Shown: in pieces, positions 3,070 through 33,600 of the stretch
Position numbering within the stretch: position 1 is the stretch's first letter
Layout of the letters: every line of letters starts with the position of its first letter
Source of the DNA: an uncultured Bacteroidales bacterium
Lineage (GTDB): Bacteria; Planctomycetota; Planctomycetia; Gemmatales; HRBIN36
NCBI GenBank assembly: GCA_964410845.1
Contig: CAYPJB010000003.1
Span: 1-34,568, forward strand
DNA length: 34,568 nt
Direction of reading: 5' to 3'
Program-made: the position numbers and the translations under genes
Notes under the pieces: generated by a model
The model's database searches: none
Told to the model about the DNA's origin: nothing
What the model saw: only the letters and a program-made list of their open reading frames with translations

Positions 3070-4488
3070 ATGTTTGCTAATCCCCTGCCCCGTCGCGCGT
3101 TCCTTCAGCAGTCTGCTTACGGCCTGGGTGCCATCGCCCTTGGCGAACTCATGGGCTGGTCGTCATCTGTCCAAGGCAATGATGACAAGCCTCGTGGCGT
3201 GCTCACCAAACTGCACTTTCCTGCGAAAGCCAAGCGGATCATTCACTTGTGCATGGCCGGCGGGCCTTCACAGCACGAATCATTCGACTGGAAGCCCAAG
3301 CTCAAGGAACTGGACGGCAAACCCTTCCCGGAATCGTTCACCAGGGGACAGCAACTCGCTCAATTGCAGAATACCAGGCTCGTCGCTCGAGGTTCCTTCG
3401 CCAACTTCAGCAAGCATGGCAAGTCAGGCCAGGAGATTTCGGAACTCTTCCCCCATATCGCCAAGCATGCGGATGAGATCGCCATCATTCGCTCCATGCA
3501 GACGGAGCAGATCAACCACGACCCGGCCCATGCGTTCATGAACTCCGGTTCCATCATCAAGGGCAGGCCCAGCATGGGGTCCTGGCTGCTCTACGGCCTG
3601 GGAGTGGAGACTGCCAACCTGCCCGGCTTCATCGTCCTCACGTCCACTAGCAAGGCCGGCGGCGCACAACCCGTCTCGGCACGGCAATGGTCAGCGGGGT
3701 TTCTGCCCAGCAAGTACCAGGGCATCATGTTTCAGTCGAAGGGTGATGCGGTCCACTACGTCGGCAGCCCTCCTGGCGTTTGTCAAAGTACCCAGCGGCA
3801 GATCATCGACGAGATCCAACGGATGAATGGCATGCTGGCTGAAGAAAAGCATGACCCCGAGATCGCCACTCGCATCGCCCAGTATGAACTGGCGTTCCGT
3901 ATGCAGACCTCGGTGCCGGAACTGACCGACTTCAGTAAGGAGCCCAAGGCAACACTCGACCTCTACGGCGTGAAGGAACCGGGTGATGGCAGCTTTGCTT
4001 CCAACTGCCTGATGGCACGACGACTGGCGGAGCGAGGGGTTCGGTTCATTCAACTCTACCATCGTGCCTGGGATCATCATGGCGAGATTGAAAAGAGCAT
4101 GAAGATCGCCGCCAACGATGTCGATCAGTCGAGCGCTGCACTTTTGACAGATCTCAAACAGCGAGGCTTGCTCGACGATACACTGGTCATCTGGGGTGGC
4201 GAATTCGGCCGCACCCCCATGGGACAGGGATCAGGTCGTGATCATCACATTCTGTCGTTCTCACTGTGGATGGCAGGTGGCGGCATCAAAGGTGGCGTCA
4301 CTTATGGCAACACCGATGAACTAGGCTACCGCTCCGTGGAAGATGTCGTCAGTGTCCACGATCTGCACGCGACTCTGCTGCATCAATGTGGCATCGATCA
4401 CCAGCGATTCAGCTTCAAGTACCAGGGGCTGGACATGCGACTAACGGGCGTAGAGCCTTGCCGGGTGGTGAAAGAGATACTGGCGTAA
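3070..4488 (+). CDS. DUF1501 domain protein (sulfatase/alkaline-phosphatase-like fold) with Tat-type signal
   Basis: N-terminal RRAFLQQSAYGLGAIAL twin-arginine signal. GGPSQHESFDWKP and the C-terminal GRDHH region are characteristic of planctomycete DUF1501 proteins. Confidence 0.9.
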   Translation: MFANPLPRRAFLQQSAYGLGAIALGELMGWSSSVQGNDDKPRGVLTKLHFPAKAKRIIHLCMAGGPSQHESFDWKPKLKELDGKPFPESFTRGQQLAQLQNTRLVARGSFANFSKHGKSGQEISELFPHIAKHADEIAIIRSMQTEQINHDPAHAFMNSGSIIKGRPSMGSWLLYGLGVETANLPGFIVLTSTSKAGGAQPVSARQWSAGFLPSKYQGIMFQSKGDAVHYVGSPPGVCQSTQRQIIDEIQRMNGMLAEEKHDPEIATRIAQYELAFRMQTSVPELTDFSKEPKATLDLYGVKEPGDGSFASNCLMARRLAERGVRFIQLYHRAWDHHGEIEKSMKIAANDVDQSSAALLTDLKQRGLLDDTLVIWGGEFGRTPMGQGSGRDHHILSFSLWMAGGGIKGGVTYGNTDELGYRSVEDVVSVHDLHATLLHQCGIDHQRFSFKYQGLDMRLTGVEPCRVVKEILA

Positions 4489-4632: not shown

Positions 4633-6036
4633 ATGCAACCCAATAACGTATCACGCCGTGGCTTCCTGGCCGGCTCACTAGGGGCTATTTGTGCCACCGG
4701 CTTGCCTCTCTGGTATGCCAGGGAAATTGTCGCTCTCGAACAGGAACATGCTTTACGGGCTGTCAAGTCAGCCAACGATAAGCTCCAGGTGGGAGTCATC
4801 GGATGCGGCGACCGCGTTCGCAGCGGCGATCTGCTGTTCAGCTTGCTGAGAAACCCCAATGTGCAGGTGGTTGCCTGCTGCGATGTCGATGAAAAGCAGC
4901 TCAATTACACAGCAGGCATCGTAGAAGGCGAGAAGCCTAACAACACCCGTGGCAAGAACCTCGATGGCTATCGTCGTCCCATTCCTTCGGGCGAACAGGA
5001 CCCCAATCGCAAAACCGATGTGAAGGTCAAACGCTTCAAAGACTTCCGCGACCTGGTCGCTCTCAAGGAAGTGGATGCCGTCCTGATCACCACGCCTGAT
5101 CACTGGCATGCCCTGCCTGCCATCGCCGCAGCCAACGCCAAGAAGGATATCTACTGCGAGAAGCCACTTTCGCTGACGATTGCAGAAGGGCGAGCGATGG
5201 CCAACGCAGCTCGCGCGAACAATATCGTCTTCCAGACGGGTAGCCAGCAACGATCCGAACTGGGCAAGTTCCGCCTGGCGTGCGAACTGGTGCAGAATGG
5301 CCGCATCGGCAAACTCAAAAAGGTCGAAACCCGCATCGGCAACCCCGATAAAGGTGGACCATTCAAGACCGAAGCACCCCCCGAAGGACTGGACTGGAAC
5401 TTCTGGCTGGGTCAGACTCCAGACGTTCCATTCATTAAGGAGCGCTGCCACTACCAGTTCCGCTGGTGGTATGCCTACTCAGGTGGCAAGATGACCGACT
5501 GGGGCGCTCACCATAACGACACGGCCCAGTGGGCGCTCGGCATGGATGACAGCGGCCCGGTGAAGGTCACTGCCATCAAGGGTGAAGCCCCCGGCATCGA
5601 GAATGGTTATGATTGCCATCGCGATTTCGAAGTTGTCTTCGAGTATGCCAACGGCGTGCCGGTACACTGCATGGCTGCTGGCGAGAACGGCGTTCACTTC
5701 CAGGGAGAGGATGGCTGGATCTTTGTCAGCCGGGGTTCATTGAAGGCCAGCGATCCGAAGATCATCAGCGAACCGCTCGGCGCTGACGCCAAGCGCCTGC
5801 TGGCTTCGCCAAGCCACATGGGGAACTTCCTGAACAACATCAAGAGCCGAGGCCGCTGCTGTGCCGATGTCGAGATCGGGCATCGCTCCGCGACGGTGTG
5901 CCACTTGGGTAACATCGCCCTCCGTTTTGCCATGGGTAAGCCCCTCACCTGGGATCCCAAGACAGAACGTTTCAGCGATACAGCCATGAACCAGCACGTC
6001 TCCCGTGAGATGCGTGCCCCGTGGAAGCTTTCGTAA
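4633..6036 (+). CDS. Gfo/Idh/MocA family oxidoreductase with Tat-type signal
   Basis: SRRGFLAGSLGAI signal. Rossmann start (LQVGVIGCGDR), the conserved EKP motif (IYCEKPLSL) and a DWGAHH block. Confidence 0.9.
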   Translation: MQPNNVSRRGFLAGSLGAICATGLPLWYAREIVALEQEHALRAVKSANDKLQVGVIGCGDRVRSGDLLFSLLRNPNVQVVACCDVDEKQLNYTAGIVEGEKPNNTRGKNLDGYRRPIPSGEQDPNRKTDVKVKRFKDFRDLVALKEVDAVLITTPDHWHALPAIAAANAKKDIYCEKPLSLTIAEGRAMANAARANNIVFQTGSQQRSELGKFRLACELVQNGRIGKLKKVETRIGNPDKGGPFKTEAPPEGLDWNFWLGQTPDVPFIKERCHYQFRWWYAYSGGKMTDWGAHHNDTAQWALGMDDSGPVKVTAIKGEAPGIENGYDCHRDFEVVFEYANGVPVHCMAAGENGVHFQGEDGWIFVSRGSLKASDPKIISEPLGADAKRLLASPSHMGNFLNNIKSRGRCCADVEIGHRSATVCHLGNIALRFAMGKPLTWDPKTERFSDTAMNQHVSREMRAPWKLS

Positions 6037-6060
6037 TACACGCTGGAATGTTTAGCGATG

Positions 6061-6090
6061 GAGGCACTCAACTTGAGTGCCTCTTTTCGT
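6061..6090 (+). terminator. intrinsic terminator downstream of the oxidoreductase gene
   Basis: GAGGCACTCA (6061-6070) and TGAGTGCCTC (6074-6083) are perfectly complementary. A T-rich run TTTTCGTTGTT follows. It lies 25 nt after the TAA stop. Confidence 0.65.
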
Positions 6091-6155
6091 TGTTCGTATT
6101 GGTGATTGGCGAACTGAGATGAGCTCATTCACAGGTGAGGCACGCACAGCGTGCC

Positions 6156-6920
6156 CTACTTCTTTTGCTGTTCCAGTAGTGCCAGTCGTTCGACGATGCC
6201 CAGATACTGATCCTGCCTGGCTCGCCAGACACCTTGGGCGATAGCCCTGGGGTTAGGCCAGTTGACCAGGCTGAGGTGGTCTCCTTCCCAGATGGTATGC
6301 GGATAGTGATGGCAGGCCGAGGTGATGGAGACAATGCCATCGTTCGGGCCTTCACGAAACATCACCACACCATACGGAATCCACCATTCCGGGCTGAGCC
6401 AGGGGCCACTGTTGCGACCGGCGATGGCATAATAGTCCACGCCGGGGGCATCGATCACCATCGCGTTAAATTCCTGGCAGCGCGGTGTCATCAGGTCGTA
6501 GAAGGCATCATGCGGGATGTGCAGGTACCTGAGCCAGGGCTTCAAATAGCCTTCCAGTTTGCTGACTCCCACATCTGCTGCGGTAGAACCTCGATGCGGT
6601 GTGCCGATCGTGGTCAGGGAGAGGGCTTGTTCCTGCAAGCCCAGGCAACTGATGGCATAGCGGGCATCGAGGCCGCCCATGCTGTGGGCAATGAGGTGGA
6701 CTTTTTCCTGAGGGAACTGCTGCCTGATGGCATCAACCAGTTGAATAGCCCGCTGGGCCACCCCAGCCGTGGGGCTCAAACGCGGTGCAACTACGCGAAT
6801 GCTTTTAGTGCGAAGGTATTCACCGATGCCACGAAAATACGTCATCGCTTCCCAGCCGGCAACGCGCCAGCTATCGAAGCCAAAGAGACCATGCACCAGA
6901 ATCAGCGGATGGCGTAACAA
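6156..6920 (-). CDS. alpha/beta-hydrolase, lipase/esterase family
   Basis: PLILVHGLFGF oxyanion-region motif, nucleophile elbow AHSMGG, and a later NDGIVS motif as in family I bacterial lipases. TTG start. Only 24 nt downstream of the second exbD. Confidence 0.8.
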   Translation of the reverse strand: MLRHPLILVHGLFGFDSWRVAGWEAMTYFRGIGEYLRTKSIRVVAPRLSPTAGVAQRAIQLVDAIRQQFPQEKVHLIAHSMGGLDARYAISCLGLQEQALSLTTIGTPHRGSTAADVGVSKLEGYLKPWLRYLHIPHDAFYDLMTPRCQEFNAMVIDAPGVDYYAIAGRNSGPWLSPEWWIPYGVVMFREGPNDGIVSITSACHHYPHTIWEGDHLSLVNWPNPRAIAQGVWRARQDQYLGIVERLALLEQQKK

Positions 6921-7619: not shown

Positions 7620-8342
7620 TTATTCTGCAGGCGCGCCGGGCGCGGGAGTTTTCGGGCCGACCTTGGCTACATACTTCAGGTTCATGGATTCCAGCCCCAT
7701 CATCAGCGACTGAACCCGCTCGAACGCAATTGTTGATTCCACTTGCAGCACGATCTTCATTGCGCCGGTTGAACCACGCTCCGCTTTCTCGGCTTTCACC
7801 TTGTCGAGCACTTCCTGCTCGGTGAACTTATCGGTGATGTTCTCTTTGAAGTGATAGACGATCTTGCGCTTTTCGGGATCATCGGGATCAGTGCGGATAC
7901 TGATCACGACATTGCCCTGTCTATCAGCAATCTCCGACATCTTCACAGCAGGAATCTTGAATGGAGCAGCCGTGATGAGGTTCTGAGCCGTCATCATGAA
8001 GAACACGAGAAGCACCATGCTGATGTCGATGAGGGGGATCATATCGACATCTTCGTCTTCCTCTTCTGGTGGCTTGGAAGGACCAAAGTCGATTTCGATG
8101 GGTTCCAGAGCTTCAGCCATGTCCTGAGAGGTAGGCAAGCCGCCAGCACCAAAGTAAGGCTGAAAGAGCGGATGTGCGTCAAGATACTCCCAGGCGGGGG
8201 CACCCGGCGTACGAACGCAGTCTCGCCCGAGGAGTCGGCCTTCCTGTATCCAGTCACAGACGACGGTATAGGGCACGCCACGGTAAACCGTGTTCGGTTG
8301 CACGAGCCAGACGTTGAAGAAGCGGGGAGCGTCAGTGGCCAT
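7620..8342 (-). CDS. exbD: ExbD/TolR-family biopolymer transport protein with N-terminal GYF_2-like extension
   Basis: DMIPLIDISMVLLVFFMM ExbD signature. The N-terminal part (VWLVQPNTVYRGVPYTVVCDWIQEGRLLGRDCVRTPGAPAWEYLDAHPLF) is GYF_2-like. The ORF track starts at TTG 8351; I prefer the in-frame ATG at 8342. Confidence 0.85.
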   Translation of the reverse strand: MATDAPRFFNVWLVQPNTVYRGVPYTVVCDWIQEGRLLGRDCVRTPGAPAWEYLDAHPLFQPYFGAGGLPTSQDMAEALEPIEIDFGPSKPPEEEDEDVDMIPLIDISMVLLVFFMMTAQNLITAAPFKIPAVKMSEIADRQGNVVISIRTDPDDPEKRKIVYHFKENITDKFTEQEVLDKVKAEKAERGSTGAMKIVLQVESTIAFERVQSLMMGLESMNLKYVAKVGPKTPAPGAPAE

Positions 8343-8366
8343 AGTTCTCAATTAAGCGTCGAGAAA

Positions 8367-8463
8367 AGTTGTTGGTTGTTTGTTGTTGGTTGTTGGAAAA
8401 GACACGTCGTTGAGTGCCTCAAAGACGTTTGAACTAACAACCAACAACCAAAAACAAATAACT
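8367..8463. repeat. GTTGTTGG / CCAACAAC inverted-repeat hairpin (gene-less member of the family also seen at 23054-23518)
   Basis: Left arm AGTTGTTGGTTGTTTGTTGTTGGTTGTTGG (8367-8396). Right arm AACTAACAACCAACAACCAAAAACAAATAACT (8432-8463). The arms are largely complementary, and a 35-nt spacer separates them. The element fills the exbB-exbD intercistronic gap. Confidence 0.7.
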
Positions 8464-8470
8464 CAAAATG

Positions 8471-9223
8471 CTACCGAACCACCTGGGCAGCCATCGGTCG
8501 GCCAGTGGGGACAACCGCAGCAACTGCACCTTGCATCGGCGGTGTGGTCTTGGCGGCCTGGGTCAGAAGTAGCAACTTCTGGCCAGCGTTCTTCATCTTG
8601 ATGTCGTACTTGTGAATCCATGCTTTGCAGAGCGTGTGGGTAAACACTAGTGGAATAGCAGTGAGCAGACCAAGCATCGTAGCGAAGAGTGCCAGACCGA
8701 TTTCAGCGGATGCCTGAGCCTGTCCGCCGGTACCCTTCTCGCTGGCTTCACCCAGTGCCGAGAAGGTGCCGATCATCGAGATGATCGTAAAGAGCAGCCC
8801 GACCATCGTCGCAATCTTGGCGAAGGCCAGAATCGTTGGCAGCAGGAAGTTGAGTGCGGGAAGAATTTCGAGTTCGACAGCGTTGGCCATCGACTTGCGC
8901 ATTGCAGCCAGGCCTTCACGCTGCTTTTCGAGGGCAGCTACAAAGAGCGTGCTGGGAATGTATTCGTTCTTGGGCTGGGCCTTGCAGAACTTGAGGGCAC
9001 CATCGATACCTTCCTTGTTCAGGATCTCCTGGAACTTGGGAAGGAACAGATTCAGATCAGTCTTGGCGTTGTAGTTGAGCCAAAGCCGCCAGACGACGAG
9101 CACGGCACCAATGAAAGTCATCGTAAACAGAATGACTGCAAAGAGCGTATCGTGCGTCACAAACTTGATGAAGGCGCTTTCTGCGAAGAGCATCGTACTG
9201 AGCATCGTTGACGTTCCAGGCAC
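8471..9223 (-). CDS. exbB: MotA/TolQ/ExbB proton-channel family protein
   Basis: Three-TM architecture with conserved C-terminal TM blocks (KIATMVGLLFTIISMIGTF; ALFATMLGLLTAIPLVF). GTG start at 9223; an ATG six codons downstream is an alternative. Confidence 0.9.
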   Translation of the reverse strand: MPGTSTMLSTMLFAESAFIKFVTHDTLFAVILFTMTFIGAVLVVWRLWLNYNAKTDLNLFLPKFQEILNKEGIDGALKFCKAQPKNEYIPSTLFVAALEKQREGLAAMRKSMANAVELEILPALNFLLPTILAFAKIATMVGLLFTIISMIGTFSALGEASEKGTGGQAQASAEIGLALFATMLGLLTAIPLVFTHTLCKAWIHKYDIKMKNAGQKLLLLTQAAKTTPPMQGAVAAVVPTGRPMAAQVVR

Positions 9224-17656: not shown

Positions 17657-17763
17657 AGTTGAGGAGTATGATATGAGTTGTTGAAGTCCCGGCTGAGTGT
17701 GAACTCTCGCTTTCGTGGGAAGTCATTCCAGCCAGGGTGCCGGGAGCATTTCATGAAAAGTCG

Positions 17764-17964
17764 TGCCGGTGCCCGGAACGTGCATGAGAGTTCTCGTGCC
17801 ATGGAAGCGACTGTATTCAGTCTCCTCCGTGCTGGGCAACGAACAATTCGGTTTCTTCATAAAACCTTGGGGGACTCGAAGTGACTGTACATCACAACTC
17901 GAAAAAGAAGGAGTACCTTCACTTCCGTGGCACGGCATTCTCAGTAACCTACAGAGCACCCGGC
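17764..17964 (+). repeat. copy A of a ~180-200 nt hairpin-forming repeat (left flank of low-GC cassette)
   Basis: Aligns with 19558-19737. Shared blocks are GGTGCCCGGAAC, CATGAGAGTT, CGTGCCA, GTCTCCTCCGTGCTGG, AAGGAGTACCTTCACTT, CGTGGCACG and CATTCTCAG. The outer arms 17783-17820 and 17908-17944 are complementary. Confidence 0.65.
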
Positions 17965-18042
17965 GAGAGCGCATCTTCCATGATGACTTCTCGCTCGCCC
18001 CCCCCTGCGTTACTGGAATGATCCGAGCTCTTGGCCAGTTCA

Positions 18043-18471
18043 TTAAGGACTACCATTATTATTGAGAAAGAAATAATCACCATAGCGCAAGGAAATCAGA
18101 CCTACTTCTCTCGTATTAAACACAATACAAATACACTCCTTTATGTCAATCTTCTTATTTTTATCAATAAATATATTGTATACCTCAGGTATTTTATGTA
18201 AGGTAGTCAGCTGAAGTCGCCAGATTCTGGCGGGAGTACCTTCGACAGTTTTGGGAAATTCAATTTTTCTAATGACTTTATATGCACCTAATAGTGACAT
18301 AGATTTCAAATCGAAGGCAACTAAAGTTTGCCTTCCAGGTGGCACGTAGACCAACATTTTTGCTTGATGATGCTGAAATACAATTGGCACACTATAATCG
18401 TCTGGATCATATTGACGATCACTGTGACAGTAGAGCAAAACAATAACCCAGAATATGCTCGAAGGCATCAT
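18043..18471 (-). CDS. hypothetical small protein with N-terminal hydrophobic segment
   Basis: 142-aa ORF. Its start overlaps the stop of the upstream ORF (ATGA at 18468-18471). N-terminal SSIFWVIVLLYC is signal- or anchor-like. Very AT-rich. I recognise no family. Confidence 0.5.
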   Translation of the reverse strand: MMPSSIFWVIVLLYCHSDRQYDPDDYSVPIVFQHHQAKMLVYVPPGRQTLVAFDLKSMSLLGAYKVIRKIEFPKTVEGTPARIWRLQLTTLHKIPEVYNIFIDKNKKIDIKECICIVFNTREVGLISLRYGDYFFLNNNGSP

Positions 18472-19364
18472 TTGACTACTTCTTTATTAGACCGGATAAG
18501 GCATCGTGACATCGCTGCAGTACGAACGATTCTCCACAATCCGAATCCTACAGATGCCATAATCAGGAATACTTTACTAGACAGTTCTGGAACCGCAGTG
18601 ACAGTGAGCTGCGATTCTATTGTCATTCCCAAACCAATATCACCATTTCCTTGCGCTCCAACTAAGTCAAGTGTAAATCCCCAAAGCACATTACTACTCG
18701 AGTATTGAAGGTTGTTTCCTGTTTGAGAAGTTCCACCTTTTGCTGCAAACACGTAACCATGCCAAAATATTTGATATGGCTTGGCAACAGTTCGTGCTGC
18801 ATCTTCAAATCGCATAGATCCATTTGGCGCAAAAGGATAGAAAGGAAGCTCTGTGCCATCTAAAAACCAATATGAGCCATCAACCGGATCTGTATAGGCC
18901 CTTGCACCAACTCCCTGCGCACTCTCTAGACTATTGGTATGGACGACTTGTAATAATCTAAATTCCTCTTGCGATGGAGATTGCCAGGGTTGATAGGAAA
19001 GGTGGATGTTTGCGCCGCCTGCTGACATCAATGCAATGGGCGTGTACTGCTCAAGTGTGAATTGTCCATCGGCGGTAAAGGAGCTGATGGTCCAGTTATG
19101 CGCGGCATCGATGTTGCTTTTACCTAGGACAGCAGACATGTTACCTGGAAAAGCAGTCATGCCATCCGACAGAATTAGGTTTGTCACAACAACCTTTCCA
19201 TCTGGTCGAACTGGGCCAATTGCGTTTCCAGAGCCACCTGGCGGAAATTCTCCAGTTGGTTTTTGTAACCATCCAGATTGCGGTGGAAGAACTTGAGCGA
19301 CAAGAGCAGTTGGCAAAAAAAACAAAAGGAAAACTGAATACAACAATGAGTAGTAAGGCATCAC
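18468..19364 (-). CDS. secreted protein with PEP-CTERM-like C-terminal sorting signal
   Basis: Signal peptide (LLYSVFLLFFLPTALVAQ). The C-terminus VPELSSKVFLIMASVGFGLWRIVR has a PE(P/L) motif, a TM helix and a basic cluster, as in PEP-CTERM/exosortase substrates. A strong SD (GGAGGAG) lies 5 nt upstream of the ATG. Confidence 0.6.
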   Translation of the reverse strand: MMPYYSLLYSVFLLFFLPTALVAQVLPPQSGWLQKPTGEFPPGGSGNAIGPVRPDGKVVVTNLILSDGMTAFPGNMSAVLGKSNIDAAHNWTISSFTADGQFTLEQYTPIALMSAGGANIHLSYQPWQSPSQEEFRLLQVVHTNSLESAQGVGARAYTDPVDGSYWFLDGTELPFYPFAPNGSMRFEDAARTVAKPYQIFWHGYVFAAKGGTSQTGNNLQYSSSNVLWGFTLDLVGAQGNGDIGLGMTIESQLTVTAVPELSSKVFLIMASVGFGLWRIVRTAAMSRCLIRSNKEVVK

Positions 19365-19557
19365 ATCTCCTCCATTGTGTCATTTCTAATAATACGATAT
19401 TGTCTTTCTTGACTTTGTCACTGCTTAGAATAGCTGTGTGCCCAAGGTGACAGTTTGGAAACAGTGAGGAGAATACCGCAAAACTGCAAATGCCAATGGC
19501 ACTCTAGCTTTCATTTTAACGGCTCATTTCTCCCCTTTCTCACGTTGCATTGATAAA

Positions 19558-19737
19558 TGCCCGGTGCCCGGAACAATCATGAGAGTTAGCGTGCCACGGA
19601 GGTGACAGTACTCGGTCTCCTCCGTGCTGGACAGTCGACCAATTCGATTTCTTCACGGCAGCATCCTAGCACGGAAGAGAAGGAGTACCTTCACTTGCGT
19701 GGCACGTCATTCTCAGGATCCTACAAAGTACTCGGCC
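19558..19737 (+). repeat. copy B of the hairpin-forming repeat (right flank of low-GC cassette)
   Basis: See copy A. In this copy 19578-19630 pairs with 19665-19717 over about 50 positions with few mismatches and bulges, around a ~35-nt loop. Confidence 0.65.
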
Positions 19738-19830
19738 AAAGTATGACACTCGTTGCACATCATCTAGGCAGGATTCCCGTCATAAGATAGTATTTGTCTA
19801 ACGGTTGCATCGGCCTCTGGGTATAGATGT

Positions 19831-21057
19831 ATGAGTGACACGGCTACGAACGCTACCCCCTCTCTCCAGGAACGCGTTCAATCACTGCGATTGAACAAGG
19901 ATATACGAGTACCTCCCCGGCGGGGTGGCAAACTCTTCTGGTTGATCATCCTGGGCGTCTTTGTCGGTGGAGGGGCCTGGTTGTGGCTCACCTATGGTGA
20001 ATCCCTCCGCAAGGCACTCAGTACGTCCACTTCGCCCATGGCTGTGGCGACATCGACCAAGCCCGTGGAATCCGAGAAGATCGCCAGCAACATTGCATTG
20101 GAAGCAGGTGGCTATATCGTGCCATTCCAGAAAGTACAAGTCAGCCCCAAAGTGGGTGGGCAGGTGAAGGAACTCTTCATCGAAGAAGGCACTTATGTAA
20201 AGGCAGGTGCCGTGCTGGCCAAGCTCGAAGTGGAAGAATACCTCTTTGAGTTCCGCCGGGCTACTGCCGTTGCTCAACTCGCCAAGGCCAAGCTTGACGA
20301 AGCCGAGAAGGGCAACCGGGATGAAGAAAAACTGCAAGCCAATGCTGCTGAACAGGAAGCATTCGAATCCCTGAAACTGGCCAAGGACGAACTCACCAAA
20401 CTGACAGCTTCCGGTAACGCCATCACGTTAGATGAATTGGATAAAGCCAAGAGCCGCGTCCGCATCAGTGAACAGAAGCTCGAACAACAGCGGGCAATCA
20501 ATGCCATGATGAAGAAGGGACAGCGGGATGAACGCAAATCCGCTGCCAAGGCTGAGTACGATCAGGCTTGTGCCGATCGGGATAAAGCGCAATGGCGGCT
20601 GGATAATTGCAGCGTTGTAGCTCCTATCAACGGTGTTATTCTCGAAAAGAAAACAGAACTGGGCAACACGGTTCGCCCTGAAGCCTTTTCCAACGGCCTC
20701 TCTGCTAACTTGTGCGATATGGCTGATCTCAAGAACCTCGAAGTCGAAGTGGACATCAGCGAACGTGATATCCGGCAAATCAAACGAGGTCAACTCTGCA
20801 ACATTAGCACCGAAGCCTTCAAGGACAAGAAGTACACTGGACAGGTTGCTCGTATCATGCCTGTCGCCAGTCGCAGCAAGGCCAGCGTCACGGTGCGGGT
20901 CAAAATCAATGTCCCTGACGATGAGAAAGATCTGCGTCCTGAAATGCGTGCCCGGGTACAGTTCTTGAAGAACCCCAGTGAAACACCTGCACCAGCAACG
21001 AATACCCCTGTAGCTGCAACGCCAACAACCAGCACTGACATCTCTGTCAAGAAATAG
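19831..21057 (+). CDS. HlyD/MacA-type periplasmic adaptor (membrane fusion protein)
   Basis: N-terminal TM anchor, a lipoyl/barrel segment (PKVGGQVKELFIEEGTYVKAGAVLAKL), a long coiled-coil hairpin, and VVAPINGVILEK after the coiled coil. Confidence 0.85.
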   Translation: MSDTATNATPSLQERVQSLRLNKDIRVPPRRGGKLFWLIILGVFVGGGAWLWLTYGESLRKALSTSTSPMAVATSTKPVESEKIASNIALEAGGYIVPFQKVQVSPKVGGQVKELFIEEGTYVKAGAVLAKLEVEEYLFEFRRATAVAQLAKAKLDEAEKGNRDEEKLQANAAEQEAFESLKLAKDELTKLTASGNAITLDELDKAKSRVRISEQKLEQQRAINAMMKKGQRDERKSAAKAEYDQACADRDKAQWRLDNCSVVAPINGVILEKKTELGNTVRPEAFSNGLSANLCDMADLKNLEVEVDISERDIRQIKRGQLCNISTEAFKDKKYTGQVARIMPVASRSKASVTVRVKINVPDDEKDLRPEMRARVQFLKNPSETPAPATNTPVAATPTTSTDISVKK

Positions 21058-21086: not shown

Positions 21087-21809
21087 ATGTCCAAGCCTAT
21101 TGTGCAATGCAAGGAAGTGGTCAAGTTCTTCCAGCGAGGTGGAGAACGTATCGATGTGCTCCATCACCTCAACCTCACCGTGGCGGAGGGAGAGTTCGTT
21201 GCCCTCATGGGACCGTCCGGGTCTGGTAAAACCACGCTGCTCAACATGATCGCTGGCTTGGATACCCCCAGCGAAGGAGAAATCTGGGTGGGTGACGACC
21301 TTGTCTCTGCCCTGAATGAAGAAGAACTATCCCGTTGGCGAACACGCAGTATCGGATTCGTTTTCCAGTTTTACCACCTGTTGCCAGTGCTCACCGCATA
21401 CGAAAACGTCGAGATGCCTTTGCTGCTGTTGCCATTATCCGCCAAGGAACGGCACAAGCAGGTGTACACGGCCATGGAACTGGTCGGTCTGACCGACCGC
21501 ATGAACCACCGCCCTGGCCAGCTATCCGGTGGTCAGCAGCAACGCGTCGGTATTGCCCGTGCCCTGGTGACCGATCCAACTCTGATAGTAGCAGATGAAC
21601 CAACTGGTGATCTGGATTCCAAAAGCGCGGATGAAATTCTGACACTCATGCAGGAATTGCCCCGTTCGCTGGGCAAGACCATCATCATGGTGACTCACGA
21701 TCCCCATGCTGCCGAGCGTGCCCAGCGACTGGTGAAACTCGAAAAGGGCAAACTCGTCGAAGATTCCTACGTTACCAGCCGTAAAGGCGAACTGATTTCG
21801 GTGAGCTGA
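21087..21809 (+). CDS. ABC transporter ATP-binding protein (MacB/LolD/FtsE-like)
   Basis: Walker A GPSGSGKTT, signature LSGGQQQRVGIARAL, Walker B LIVADEPTGDLD, H-loop VTHD. Confidence 0.95.
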   Translation: MSKPIVQCKEVVKFFQRGGERIDVLHHLNLTVAEGEFVALMGPSGSGKTTLLNMIAGLDTPSEGEIWVGDDLVSALNEEELSRWRTRSIGFVFQFYHLLPVLTAYENVEMPLLLLPLSAKERHKQVYTAMELVGLTDRMNHRPGQLSGGQQQRVGIARALVTDPTLIVADEPTGDLDSKSADEILTLMQELPRSLGKTIIMVTHDPHAAERAQRLVKLEKGKLVEDSYVTSRKGELISVS

Positions 21810-21812
21810 TTC

Positions 21813-23051
21813 ATGAAACTGATCAAGTTAATCCTGAAAAACCTGCTCCGCAACAAGGTGCGTTCCATCCTGACGGCTGTCGCCATTTTCCTGCTGGTGG
21901 CCATCTTCACGCTCATCATGACCGTCATCCGCTTCCTCGATAAGCAGATGATGGATCAATCGAAGGACGTGCTGGCAGTCATCACCGAACGCTATCGCAT
22001 CCCCAGCCGGTTTGATCGGAAGTACATGGAAGACATCGGCACCACTGGCAGCACACTTAATTCCAACCTTTCGAACATCGAAGGCTTCGATGGTTCGAAG
22101 ACCAACCTCTGGCACTTTGTCGGTTTTACCCTTGATCCCACGATGCAGGACAAGGACAAGTTCTTCTTCGTCATCGCTTGCTGGCCTGACAAGATCAACA
22201 CCATGACCGATGGCCTGAAGGACTTCGACAACGATGGCAAGATCGCCAACCTGATTCGCAATCCCCCGGTATCCGGTGTGGACAACATCGGCATCGTGCT
22301 CGGCCCCGAACGCTTGAAGAAACTCGGCAAGAAGGTCGGCGATGTTTTCAAAGCCATGTCGGTGCTGCACAAAGGTGCTGATGGTAAAGCAGTAGAGTTT
22401 GAACTCGAAATTGTGGGAGAACTGCCTGGAGGCAGCCGCTGGGCACAGGGTGGTTTCATGGATTATGAATACCTGAACCGCGTGCTGAAGGCGGTCAATT
22501 GCGACCTCGATGGTAAAGTGAATCTCGGCTGGATCATGACCGACACGCAGGAGGCAGCCATCCAATCAGCAGGCACCATTGAATCGTACCTGCCAGACGT
22601 GAAGTGCGAAACGCTCTCCTCCGCGGTAAGCCGGTTCCTGGAGCCTTTCAAGGACATTCTTTGGGGCGTGAAGTGGCTGCTGGTGCCTGCCATCTTCATG
22701 GTGATGACGGTGATCGTTGCCAACGCCATCAGCATTACCGTGCGTGAACGTCGCATGGAGATCGCGGTACTGAAGGTGCTGGGGTTCGGTCCGAGTCAGA
22801 TCATGTTCCTCATCCTGGGGGAAGGTATTCTGCTCGGCACGCTTGCCGGCGGGCTGAGCGCAACAACCGTTTGGGCTCTGATGAACAACGTAAAACTCCA
22901 GGTACTCTTCTTCGGTGGATTCAATGTCCCCGATGAAGCACTGGTCTGGGGCTTCGGCGCCGGGGCGGTTACTGCATTTGTTGGAAGCATCTTCCCCGCA
23001 CTCTCGGCACGCAGCGTGAAAGTGGTGGATGTGTTTTCGAGGGTGGCTTAG
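21813..23051 (+). CDS. FtsX-like (MacB-type) ABC transporter permease, subunit 1
   Basis: N-terminal LKNLLRNKVRSILT motif plus TM1, a large periplasmic domain, and three C-terminal TM helices with the FtsX-domain pattern (ISITVRERRMEIAVLKVLGF). Confidence 0.85.
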   Translation: MKLIKLILKNLLRNKVRSILTAVAIFLLVAIFTLIMTVIRFLDKQMMDQSKDVLAVITERYRIPSRFDRKYMEDIGTTGSTLNSNLSNIEGFDGSKTNLWHFVGFTLDPTMQDKDKFFFVIACWPDKINTMTDGLKDFDNDGKIANLIRNPPVSGVDNIGIVLGPERLKKLGKKVGDVFKAMSVLHKGADGKAVEFELEIVGELPGGSRWAQGGFMDYEYLNRVLKAVNCDLDGKVNLGWIMTDTQEAAIQSAGTIESYLPDVKCETLSSAVSRFLEPFKDILWGVKWLLVPAIFMVMTVIVANAISITVRERRMEIAVLKVLGFGPSQIMFLILGEGILLGTLAGGLSATTVWALMNNVKLQVLFFGGFNVPDEALVWGFGAGAVTAFVGSIFPALSARSVKVVDVFSRVA

Positions 23052-23053
23052 TC

Positions 23054-23085
23054 AGTTGCTGGTTGTTGGTTGCTTGTTGTTAGTT
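23054..23085. repeat. left (GTTG-rich) arm of 32-bp inverted repeat enclosing the four-helix-bundle gene
   Basis: The reverse complement of AGTTGCTGGTTGTTGGTTGCTTGTTGTTAGTT matches 23487-23518 at 28 of 32 positions (hand alignment). Confidence 0.75.
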
Positions 23086-23096
23086 AGGAGAAGAAG

Positions 23097-23528
23097 GTGA
23101 GCAAATTCAGCAGCTATCGTGAATTGAAATGCTGGCAAGATTCAATGACACTGGTTGAATCTGTGTTTCGAATATCTACCAGTTTTCCAAAGGAAGAACA
23201 GTTTGGTTTCGTGTCACAACTGCGACGTTCAGCTCTCTCGGTTCCTTCAAACATAGCAGAAGGACAAGGAAGAGACTCCAGGAAAGAATTCCTGCGATTT
23301 CTTGGAATTGCTCGTGGCTCCCTCCAGGAACTTGAAACCCAACTGATTCTCGCTCATCGATTGGCTTGGCTCGATACTTCAACTTTTGAGAAGTTGAGTT
23401 CCATGATTACGGAAATCAGAAGAATGTTGAACGGTTTATGCAAGTACCTCCGTACCGGCATGACTGGCAAGACCACTACAGTTCTTAACCAACAACAAAC
23501 AACCAACAACGAACAACTATTACCATGA
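23097..23528 (+). CDS. four-helix-bundle protein of the 23S rRNA intervening-sequence protein family
   Basis: YRELKCWQDSMTLVESVF...FPKEEQFGFVSQLRRSALSVPSNIAEGQGR...EFLRFLGIARGSLQELETQL is the hallmark pattern of this family. GTG start preceded by AGGAGAAGAAGG. The stop overlaps the next ATG (ATGA). Confidence 0.9.
   Translation: MSKFSSYRELKCWQDSMTLVESVFRISTSFPKEEQFGFVSQLRRSALSVPSNIAEGQGRDSRKEFLRFLGIARGSLQELETQLILAHRLAWLDTSTFEKLSSMITEIRRMLNGLCKYLRTGMTGKTTTVLNQQQTTNNEQLLP
23487..23518. repeat. right (CAAC-rich) arm of the 32-bp inverted repeat
   Basis: AACCAACAACAAACAACCAACAACGAACAACT. It lies inside the 3' end of the four-helix-bundle ORF (translated as NQQQTTNNEQL) and ends 6 nt before the permease-2 ATG. 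Confidence 0.75.
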
Positions 23529-24754
23529 TTCCCGTCCGTTACAACTACCGAAATCTGGCTGTACGCTGGCGAACGACGTTGCTGACTGCCATCGGTTTTA
23601 CCCTGGTCGTCTCTCTACTCGTCGTGATGCTGGCGTTCGTCCGTGGGCTGGCGGCGCTGGCAGACAATGCTGGTCACCCGGGAAATGTCATCATCCTGAA
23701 GGATGGCGCCAACGATGAACTCTTCAGCGAGATCAACATCGATGATGTCCACAAGACGCTCTTTTCACTCTGGAGCAGTGATGACACCGTCACTCGCGAT
23801 CCTGATGGCACTGCCTGGGTGAGCATGGAAGTCTATGGCATCGCCACCCAGGAACTGCCTGCCAAGGAACCGGGCGGACGGCCCAGTTATCGATTCATCC
23901 AGATTCGAGGCATGGAAGATCCCATCATGGCAGGCAAGGTCCATGCATTGAAACTCAAATCGGGTGGACAGTGGTTTGACCGCAGCGGCAATCAGTGCGT
24001 GCTGGGCGAAGGGATTGCCCGCGTTCTCGGCCTCAAGGTCGGCGATACTTTCCGCCCACGCCCCGGACTTCCACCCTTGTGGCAGGTGGTTGGCATCATC
24101 GAATCGGCAGGCTCACCCTTCGATTCCGAAATCTGGGCCAAACGCGAAGATGTCGGCAAGTATTTCGGCAAGGACAATGAAGAACGCAAGCAAAGCATGT
24201 ACACCACCATCGTGCTCAGACTGCCCACCTACGAAATAGCATCGCAGGCTTGTGCCTACTACAAAGATCTCCCCGATTTCAAGGTCAATGCCATGCCCGA
24301 AAAGGACTATTACCAGAAGCTGACGGAAAATACTCGTACCTTCCAGGTGGCTGCCATCGTCATCGCCATCATCATGGCAGTGGGCGGTTGCTTCGGTCTG
24401 ATGAACACGATGTTTGCCGCAGTCGCACAGCGTGTCAAGGATATCGGTGTGCTTCGCATTATCGGCTACTCCAAGCTGCAGATCCTGATCTCGTTCCTGG
24501 TGGAATCGTTGCTGATCGCCGCGCTCGGAGGCATTCTCGGCGTGCTGATTGGCCTGGGTGTCAATGGCATTGAACAAAAAGGGCAACTCAGCTCAGGCCA
24601 GGGCGGAGGCAGCAAGACCGTTGTCTTTAAGATGGTGGTAGATAAAGAAGTTATTCGGGTGGCTTGCATCTTTACTGTCGTGATGGGTTTGTTGGGGGGC
24701 ATCATCCCTGCTGTCTCCGCTATGCGGATCAAACCTCTGGATGCAGTCCGCTAA
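23525..24754 (+). CDS. FtsX-like (MacB-type) ABC transporter permease, subunit 2
   Basis: Same architecture as subunit 1 (YRNLAVRWRTTLLT plus TM1, periplasmic domain, FtsX-type C-terminal TMs with VKDIGVLRIIGY). Confidence 0.85.
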   Translation: MIPVRYNYRNLAVRWRTTLLTAIGFTLVVSLLVVMLAFVRGLAALADNAGHPGNVIILKDGANDELFSEINIDDVHKTLFSLWSSDDTVTRDPDGTAWVSMEVYGIATQELPAKEPGGRPSYRFIQIRGMEDPIMAGKVHALKLKSGGQWFDRSGNQCVLGEGIARVLGLKVGDTFRPRPGLPPLWQVVGIIESAGSPFDSEIWAKREDVGKYFGKDNEERKQSMYTTIVLRLPTYEIASQACAYYKDLPDFKVNAMPEKDYYQKLTENTRTFQVAAIVIAIIMAVGGCFGLMNTMFAAVAQRVKDIGVLRIIGYSKLQILISFLVESLLIAALGGILGVLIGLGVNGIEQKGQLSSGQGGGSKTVVFKMVVDKEVIRVACIFTVVMGLLGGIIPAVSAMRIKPLDAVR

Positions 24755-33300: not shown

Positions 33301-33307
33301 TTGAAAG

Positions 33308-33393
33308 TGGCGCTGGTGGGACTTGAACCCACACGGAGCTTACGCTCCAAGGGATTTTAAATCCCTTGTGTCTGCCGATTCCACCACAGCGCC
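33308..33393 (-). tRNA. tRNA-Leu (anticodon UAA), class II with long variable arm
   Basis: Hand-folded cloverleaf. Acceptor GGCGCTG/CAGCGCC. D stem GTG/CAC with an 11-nt loop. Anticodon stem AGGGA/TCCCT with loop TTTAAAA (anticodon TAA). Variable arm GGAGC-GTAA-GCTCC. T arm GTGGG-TTCAAGT-CCCAC. Discriminator A. CCA is not encoded. Confidence 0.9.
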
Positions 33394-33503: not shown

Positions 33504-33533
33504 AGTTGTTGGTTACTGATTGTTTGTTGTCGG
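33504..33533. repeat. solo GTTG-rich arm related to the 8367 and 23054 repeat arms
   Basis: AGTTGTTGGTTACTGATTGTTTGTTGTCGG resembles the left arms at 8367-8396 and 23054-23085. I found no complementary CAAC-rich partner nearby. Confidence 0.35.
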
Positions 33534-33600
33534 TAAAGTGCTGTAAGATATCCCTTTTCCCATCCCCTACTCGCTGCTCCCCATTCCCTCACTCCCTCGT

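Follow-up and report, generated by a model that had tools for sequence, protein, structure and literature searches.

A heptamer-armed cassette with a four-helix-bundle gene between two permease genes of an ABC exporter operon, and its relatives across bacterial phyla

Introduction

The four-helix-bundle proteins of the PF05635 family (S23p) are known from intervening sequences (IVSs) of 23S rRNA, as in Coxiella burnetii and Leptospira, where the open reading frame (ORF) is enclosed by a stem. In Coxiella, the S23p ORF is preceded by two to three tandem GACAGAT heptamers, whose number varies among strains and which lie in the 28-bp terminal stem; RNase III cleaves this stem in vitro, the ends mapped by rapid amplification of cDNA ends fall at the first repeat, and the ORF is reported to be decaying and probably untranslated (PMC4990558). 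Here we describe a cassette of the same protein family and the same stem-ORF-stem layout, which lies between two genes of an ATP-binding cassette (ABC) exporter operon on contig CAYPJB010000003.1 (assembly GCA_964410845.1), deposited as an uncultured Bacteroidales bacterium and placed by GTDB in the Gemmatales (HRBIN36) of the Planctomycetota; the whole stretch of 34,568 nucleotides that was analysed is called the window. An earlier reading of this stretch, made from the letters without database searches (the sequence-only reading), had named the IVS and RNase III background of the family, in agreement with the published account (PMC4990558), and had seen the same logic inside an mRNA. The cassette shares with the rRNA IVSs complementary termini that enclose the ORF (36 nt, 86% complementary), but the IVSs sit in helix 25 or 45 of the 23S rRNA, whereas the cassette is flanked by FtsX-type permease genes and its host RNA is an mRNA. 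In addition, whereas the Coxiella ORF is reported as decaying, that of the cassette has a strong Shine-Dalgarno (SD) sequence, is under purifying selection and is predicted to be coupled to the next cistron.

Tandem heptamers have also been described apart from this protein family. The GGGAATC heptamers of Xanthomonas, with 70-75 convergent pairs, and the GGGGA(C/T)T heptamers of Nostoc were reported in a study in which the PF05635 family is never mentioned (PMC4692102); its supplement lists X. campestris repeat #15 (622956-622983), a GGGAATC array that lies 6 nt downstream of bccP (XCC0517) and extends over the start annotated for XCC0516. No link to PF05635 genes was made for the TAACTGA heptamers of the Beggiatoaceae either (PMC4679880). 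Heptamers of this kind, resembling the short tandemly repeated repetitive (STRR) sequences, share with the arms of the cassette a period of 7, a head-to-tail arrangement, an intergenic position, a genome-specific sequence and a polymorphic array length; they differ in that the arrays of the cassette are paired arms around one gene family. The cyanobacterial STRR tandem heptamers themselves were reportedly described by Mazel et al. in 1990.

Two kinds of DNA-level repeats provide a further comparison. In the repetitive extragenic palindromic (REP)/REPIN-RAYT system, short, species-specific hairpin repeats are dispersed over intergenic and intercistronic sites, and the gene for RAYT, an HUH tyrosine transposase, is itself flanked by inverted copies of the repeat. 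The cassette resembles this system in that its gene is flanked, in inverted orientation, by a repeat that is dispersed in its genome (further sites at 8367-8463 and 33504-33533). It differs in that its protein has no recognised catalytic motif and matches only four-helix-bundle and Avd-like models of Pfam and NCBIfam, in that its repeats are tandem heptamers and not single palindromes, and in that no multi-copy spread was seen. MITEs (miniature inverted-repeat transposable elements), such as the enterobacterial RU and ERIC elements, are likewise short, intergenic units bounded by inverted repeats and polymorphic for presence and absence, and the hairpin at 8367-8463 looks MITE-like; unlike MITEs, the cassette has no clear target-site duplication, and its arms are low-complexity heptad arrays. 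We know of no autonomous, transposase-bearing partner of the cassette. The literature covered, to which subscription journals mostly did not belong, contained no paper linking PF05635/S23p genes generally to flanking heptamer inverted repeats, and a widespread heptamer-armed four-helix-bundle cassette type appears not to have been described before.

Results

Architecture of the cassette

The cassette fills the junction between the two permease genes with the following parts:

23052-23524, plus strand: whole cassette of 473 bp (left arm, SD sequence, four-helix-bundle ORF, right arm), its edges ambiguous by at most about 3 nt
23054-23089, plus strand: left (5') arm, five tandem heptads GTTGNTN, G/T-only, from repeat search and autocorrelation
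23086-23090, plus strand: SD sequence AGGAG, 6 nt ahead of the GTG start, from the sequence
23097-23528, plus strand: four-helix-bundle gene (PF05635/TIGR02436) of 143 aa, with its GTG start at 23097
23483-23518, plus strand: right (3') arm, complement heptads of the CAACAAN type, C/A-only, inside the 3' end of the ORF
23525-23528, plus strand: ATGA overlap of the permease-2 ATG (23525-23527) and the TGA of the cassette ORF (23526-23528)

From position 23054 the sequence reads AGTTGCTGGTTGTTGGTTGCTTGTTGTTAGTTAGGA. The left arm resolves into the heptads GTTGCTG, GTTGTTG, GTTGCTT, GTTGTTA and GTTAGGA, the right arm being their complement, and the best autocorrelation lag is 7 in both arms (0.73 and 0.81). 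The sequence-only reading had given arms of 32 nt complementary at 28 positions; the four mismatched positions were confirmed, and the repeat search extends the arms to 36 nt, with 31/36 positions (86%) complementary and a spacing of 393 nt. The inverted-repeat score of the window is 21 (ungapped), as against 7.5 ± 1.0 in 100 shuffles and a maximum of 12 among 275 shifted control windows from related loci, and the arm complementarity is far beyond chance. Folded alone, the single arms are unstructured (-2.6 kcal/mol for the left and -0.9 kcal/mol for the right); in the fold of a 496-nt RNA covering 23040-23535 they pair together in both the minimum-free-energy and the centroid structure (z = -3.7). 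The arms are unable to fold on themselves and pair only with each other.

The SD sequence has its first four bases in common with the left arm, which ends on them when taken at 36 nt, and residues ~130-141 of the protein, with the tail NQQQTTNNEQL, are the translated right arm. This translated tail, the 143-aa four-helix-bundle ORF with its strong SD sequence and the overlap of its TGA with the permease-2 ATG had all been read correctly beforehand, and the family assignment now has the profile matches given below; the structure described in the sequence-only reading therefore stands, but the heptamer periodicity, the gene-less hairpin at 8367-8463 and the exceptionality of the rRNA location had been missed. 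The four-helix-bundle gene is the sole ORF of the cassette, whose GC content is 44-45% compared with 52-59% in the flanks. Neither a promoter-like site nor a convincing intrinsic terminator was found inside the cassette, and an Rfam scan of the window returned tRNA only, the arms belonging to no Rfam family.

The layout across the family branch

When one genome per species was scanned with aligned homologs as the query, 597 relatives were confirmed, and the best 80 of these by tblastn (L003-L082), the closest relatives at 41-59% identity, were kept. They come from Acidobacteriota, Planctomycetota, Bacteroidota, Clostridia, Proteobacteria, Verrucomicrobiota, Chloroflexota, the Candidate Phyla Radiation (Roizmanbacteria and Gottesmanbacteria) and others. 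For each gene copy, two stretches were aligned, one being the 150 nt upstream and the other, taken as its reverse complement, the 3' end of the gene together with the 150 nt downstream. An inverted-repeat score of at least 13 was reached by 58 of 82 gene copies and by 0 of 275 control windows, and hence the arms that the sequence-only reading had proposed to look for around other copies do exist. The best arm period was 7 in 47/57 cases and 8 in 5/57. Period-7 arrays occur at 0.81/kb within 160 nt of the family genes versus 0.05/kb elsewhere in the same loci; many of these more distant arrays are built of the gene's own heptamer or one related to it, and in several loci it recurs within a few kb.

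The heptamers are genome-specific (GGTGGAC, AGTGACA, GTCAGTA, GGTTTTC, AGTGGTT, AGTTCAC, GTTGTCG and others), with a consensus heptamer that contains AGT in 29/56 cases and RGT in 38/56. G exceeds C in the 5' arm at 48 of 54 loci (pooled 5'-arm composition: G 34%, C 12%); this G-rich-first polarity belongs to the palindrome as such, being the same on either strand. The upstream neighbour is co-oriented with the gene in 73/79 cases, at a median gap of 84 nt, and the downstream neighbour in 60/80. Typically, the stop of a co-oriented gene is followed by a heptad array, a spacer with the SD sequence, the ORF, the complementary array and the start of the next gene. At about one-third of the loci, the ORF's end and the right arm overlap. 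The arms measure 14-117 nt (2 to 17 heptads), typically four to five heptads, with no sharp mode. The repeat-gene-repeat layout is thus the normal packaging of this family branch across phyla. Among the 18 loci with the least coding-like surroundings, none (0/18) lies inside rRNA, so that the rRNA location is an exception for the family, and the ORF-bearing 23S IVS looks like a special case of the heptamer-armed cassette.

Three candidate roles of the arms were rejected on these data. As a three-frame-stop insulator, the left arm would be expected to carry stops in all three frames, which it does in 17/56 cases, with none in 14. Sequestration of the SD sequence fails as a general rule, the spacer between left arm and start being usually 20-80 nt, and would at best be local. 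A fixed set of five heptads for a pentamer does not agree with the spread of arm lengths.

Individual loci show how far the arrays can vary. About 30 copies of GGTCAGT-type units lie next to a family member at L076 (4929-5140), and the arms of L050 (2707-2823 and 3226-3342) are 117 nt long and consist of GGTGGAC-type units, with heptad variants that differ between the sides. The 8-kb locus L040, from a Desulfobacterales metagenome-assembled genome (MAG), holds two family genes with the related heptamers GGTTTTC and TGTTTTC; its arrays and genes lie at 1737-1971, 4007-4413, 5719-6243, 6556-6592 and 8011-8187, and a gene-less AAAGTTC/GAACTTT pair is spaced about 170 nt apart. In an Acidobacteriaceae MAG (L020), matches to the Acido-Lenti-1 small RNA (1479-1524 and 2691-2736) lie at most 2.5 kb upstream of a family member.

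Presence and absence of the cassette in orthologous operons

The genes of the host operon are:

19831-21057: HlyD-type adaptor
21087-21809: ABC ATPase
21813-23051: permease 1, FtsX-type, with its TAG at 23049-23051, 2 nt ahead of the left arm
23525-24754: permease 2, MacB_PCD/FtsX, without an SD sequence ahead of it

Two metagenome contigs (L001 and L002) carry the gene for a homologous protein, P0002, at the same junction of the orthologous operon; their arms are conserved, with one compensatory change from GTTG..CAAC to GTTT..AAAC. The comparison of orthologous operons that the sequence-only reading had recommended also turned up operons that lack the gene. The junction is empty in L083 and L084, whose permease 2 is 93% identical to that of the window, in L085 (Planctomycetia MAG GCA_016795155.1; permease 2 87% identical) and in the P0133 contig (78% identical). 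By these and the other relatives found, the window comes from a planctomycete of the Gemmatales type. In the empty operons, the permease-1 stop overlaps the permease-2 ATG as TAATG or TGATG, and the ATGA overlap of the window stands in place of this ancestral overlap. Alignment of the empty L083, L084 and L085 with the filled L001 places the indel at 23052-23524, both arms included: the cassette is one 473-bp indel exactly between the permease-1 stop and the permease-2 ATG. Together with the census of arms, the empty operons support the earlier proposal of a self-contained stem-ORF-stem module that occupies intercistronic sites.

The four flanking genes group as ((L001 filled, L083 empty), window filled), with the empty L085 as the outgroup. 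Over these genes L001 and L083 share 88-90% nucleotide identity; between the window and L001, identity is 82.4% in the cassette and 80-82% in the flanks. Because of this relationship of the flanking genes and because the cassette has diverged as much as its flanks, the simplest history has the cassette gained once, in an ancestor, and later lost cleanly from the L083 lineage; that it was gained twice, independently, at one and the same site is less likely.

Permease gene content likewise varies among close lineages, as three FtsX-type permease genes (413, 412 and 409 aa) follow the ATPase in the closest relatives (L001 575-5493 and L083 286-4730), whereas the window (21087-24754 compared) and the outgroup L085 have only two. 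Upstream of the operon, the region 17700-19800 holds short or overlapping ORFs on both strands and one 298-aa ORF on the minus strand, and promoter-like sites lie at 19447 and 19550, ahead of the HlyD-type gene.

The encoded protein

The cassette protein matches PF05635 with 139.4 bits (cut-off 33.8) over model positions 1-106/106 and TIGR02436 with 136 bits (cut-off 24), and it aligns with the solved protein XCC0516 (PDB 2GSC; E = 2.1e-25, residues 7-117 on 11-121); the PDB entries 2GSC and 2RLD contain five chains each. If XCC0515 is accC, XCC0516, the crystallised family member, would be another intercistronic cassette, in the accBC operon. The closest homolog, P0002, is 84% identical, with equal length and start, and the ratio of nonsynonymous to synonymous substitution rates (dN/dS) is 0.06 between the window and L001 over a 118-codon core, comparable to that of the permeases. 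The four-helix-bundle protein is under strong purifying selection.

Judged by homology to XCC0516 and Avd, the protein most likely binds nucleic acid as a pentamer. Avd has a homologous four-helix-bundle fold and a pentameric assembly, and it is a binding partner of nucleic acid and reverse transcriptase (RT) (PMC10053308); it differs from the cassette protein, which falls below the cut-offs of the Avd models and has no RT adjacent to it. We therefore rejected an identification as Avd, the bit scores being 27.3 for PF22296 (cut-off 40) and 31.6 for NF033474 (cut-off 80); the Avd-like PHROG 3206 was matched at E = 1.5e-10. No PADLOC model of a defence system was matched by the cassette protein.

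Other sites of the same heptamer

With at most one mismatch allowed, GTTGTTGGTTG has 12 matches in the window against 0.56 expected, an excess due to two further sites:

8367-8463, minus strand: hairpin without a gene, built of the same family of heptamers, with arms at 8367-8396 and 8434-8463 and a 37-nt spacer
33504-33533, plus strand: solitary, degenerate GTTG-type array without a partner arm

The hairpin lies between an ExbB-like gene (8471-9223) and an ExbD-like gene (7620-8351) and is co-oriented with both. A stretch of 24 nt, AACCAACAACAAACAACCAACAAC, which includes the irregular heptad AACAAAC, is identical in the hairpin and in the right arm of the cassette, and the hairpin folds strongly in either orientation (z ~ -5). 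The hairpin is missing from the ExbB-ExbD spacer of L207 and L208 (ExbB 90% at the amino acid level) and of L209 (86%); it is lineage-specific. The solitary array has tRNA-Leu(taa) (33307-33393, minus strand) on one side and, on the other, a gene that starts near 33593, encodes the N-terminal P-loop GPTGSGKS and is possibly MiaA.

Metagenome contigs scanned for (GTTGNTN)x4 returned 80 loci. About 16 of them are short gene-less hairpins with GTTG-to-CAAC polarity, as against two to three with the opposite polarity. Five of the 80 adjoin a gene of the four-helix-bundle type; in each of them, read on the sense strand, GTTG lies upstream and CAAC downstream. The remaining loci are solitary.

Mobility of the cassette and stability of its arms

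No sign of recent transposition was seen in identical family proteins, each of which occurs in one context: P0078 has a MacB-type permease on one side and a sigma-54 response regulator on the other in 8/8 places, and P0049 lies between grpE and dnaK in 8/8 places. The suggestion that the module is mobile was thus not borne out as far as ongoing mobility is concerned, since the divergence of the cassette keeps pace with that of its flanks and identical members keep to a single context. The arms themselves are unstable. In the grpE-dnaK spacer of Gemmataceae (L218-L225), P0049 has (AGTGGTC)n arms, the right one ending 3 nt before the dnaK ATG, and a 19-nt heptad indel in this right arm separates strains that are otherwise identical around the locus. 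The boundaries of the cassette in the window, set to about 3 nt by the empty sites, show only a possible repeat of 1-3 nt (TGA/A). An integron cassette was rejected as a candidate: no single 3' attC-type site was evident on visual impression, without a specific search, and no neighbouring gene was identified as an integrase.

Discussion

We propose, with a probability of roughly 0.55, that the element is a promoterless passenger cassette of the IVS type, in which inverted heptamer arrays bracket the gene and act at the RNA level. In this scheme, the cassette would be transcribed by read-through from the operon promoter, and the arms of the transcript would close a duplex of about 36 bp around the ORF. 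The duplex would probably be cut by RNase III, as is the stem of the Coxiella 23S rRNA IVS; because that IVS has the same architecture in rRNA, such processing is the most likely behaviour to expect of the stem. The cut would free the cassette from the cistrons on either side and/or determine how strongly it is expressed. The cassette ORF would have been lengthened across the right arm as far as the ancestral ATGA, and since it reads through this arm to the old overlap, ribosomes that finish it may melt the stem and re-initiate on the SD-less permease 2, which would restore the coupling that the insertion had broken. Gain and loss of the cassette would be rare evolutionary events and not active transposition.

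Several observations weigh against a purely RNA-level explanation. Selection for a stem in the sense RNA predicts an excess of G-U over A-C among the arm mismatches, and this wobble test failed, with 47 G-U and 48 A-C mismatches; in addition, the computed stability of the window's arm duplex is higher for the antisense RNA (-44.9 kcal/mol) than for the sense RNA (-34.6 kcal/mol). Because there is no G-U bias and the antisense duplex is the more stable one, a DNA-level mechanism or a copying process may be what keeps the arms complementary, in place of selection on the sense RNA. The 7-nt period and the recurrent AGT core are not explained by RNase III, and the long arms of L050, with their differing variants on each side, conserve the motif but not the exact register. 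The coupling argument is specific to this locus, as read-through of the right arm by the ORF is limited to about one-third of the loci, and the rule of packaging covers this PF05635 branch and not the whole family. These points keep alive two other readings, one in which the cassette is a DNA-level element and one in which the arrays are binding sites.

As a DNA-level element, the cassette would be non-autonomous and mobile or recombinogenic, with the heptamer arrays as its terminal repeats or as hairpin or cruciform ends and the gene-less hairpins as miniature derivatives; complementarity would then be kept by hairpin-templated repair, by slippage or by a trans-acting recombinase. We regard this as possible, if on balance unlikely. 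The clean presence and absence of both the whole cassette and the gene-less hairpin fit it, as do the lack of G-U bias, the copy-number polymorphism of the heptads and the GC dip in the cassette. Like the ends of a transposon, the motif also faces inward on both strands (G-rich 5' arm in 48/54), a polarity that recurs as GTTG-to-CAAC in the ~16 gene-less hairpins compared with the two to three opposite ones. However, there is no transposase or integrase in or next to the cassette and no unambiguous target-site duplication, identical proteins stay in a single context (8/8 places each), the cassette has co-diverged with its flanks, and the co-oriented upstream gene (73/79) points to dependence on host transcription.

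The heptamer arrays might alternatively be the cognate sites of the encoded protein, a ring-shaped pentamer that would contact one heptad per subunit. The gene would then be that of an autoregulated RNA- or single-stranded DNA-binding protein, and the solitary and gene-less arrays would be its regulon; TRAP, which binds spaced GAG/UAG triplets, and HutP, which binds UAG-N4 repeats, are the model analogues. This reading is compatible with a passenger cassette, and we hold it tentatively, as a rather unlikely one. It is consistent with the AGT/RGT core (38/56) within otherwise genome-specific heptamers, with the pentameric relatives (2GSC and 2RLD, five chains each) and the typical arms of four to five heptads, with the recurrence of the same heptamer at other sites of the same genome and with purifying selection on the protein. 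The closest protein pairs share heptamers, even across phyla (L035 with L056); however, heptamers shared by close pairs are equally explained by inheritance of the cassette as a unit, and a Mantel-type test of protein-heptamer co-evolution, in which only the closest pairs share heptamers, found protein similarity and heptamer identity to be uncorrelated overall (Spearman rho ~0; 1040/2000 permutations at or below the observed value). Moreover, the arms range from 2 to 17 heptads without a sharp mode at five.

A dedicated accessory subunit or regulator of the ABC exporter, with the repeats as incidental simple-sequence expansions, could be argued from the in-operon position of the gene, from its overlap with the permease-2 start, which suggests translational coupling, from its retention at the same junction in a lineage diverged to ~82% nucleotide identity and from another family member, P0078, that also follows a MacB-type permease. 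This role is very improbable and largely refuted, as the closest orthologous operons work without the gene, family members adjoin unrelated genes (grpE/dnaK, bccP and many others) and the inverted heptamer arms are found family-wide and are not noise at one locus. A remnant of a diversity-generating retroelement, with the ORF as its Avd accessory protein, has in its favour a weak similarity to Avd models (PF22296, NF033474 and PHROG 3206) but is barely credible, because both curated Avd models stay below their cut-offs, whereas PF05635 and TIGR02436 are matched far above theirs, and because no RT is adjacent (the neighbours are permeases, the ATPase, a homoserine dehydrogenase and a kinase; template and variable repeats were not searched for).

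The protein family, very abundant with its thousands of copies but uncharacterised, was named after a rare location in 23S rRNA. Its usual form appears to be a compact, heptamer-armed cassette in ordinary operons, which reframes the ORF-bearing IVS as a special case and provides a searchable signature: a co-oriented upstream gene, G-rich heptads of the AGT type, the ORF and the complementary heptads. For annotation, it is a warning that the C terminus of such a protein can come from translation of a repeat arm. The cassette also ties a protein family to tandem heptamers that have been described repeatedly without explanation in Xanthomonas, Nostoc and the Beggiatoaceae and, as STRR heptamers, reportedly since 1990. 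We speculate, regarding the proposal as a whole as rather unlikely, that PF05635 pentamers are the missing partner of the bacterial tandem heptamers (STRR, GGGAATC, TAACTGA and GTTGTTG), each recognising the heptamer of its own genome and perhaps propagating or regulating through it; inward-pointing arrays would then mark the gene, and the ORF-bearing 23S IVS would be a cassette that landed in rRNA. The pairing of gene and arrays makes both the protein family and the heptamer repeats directly testable by experiment.

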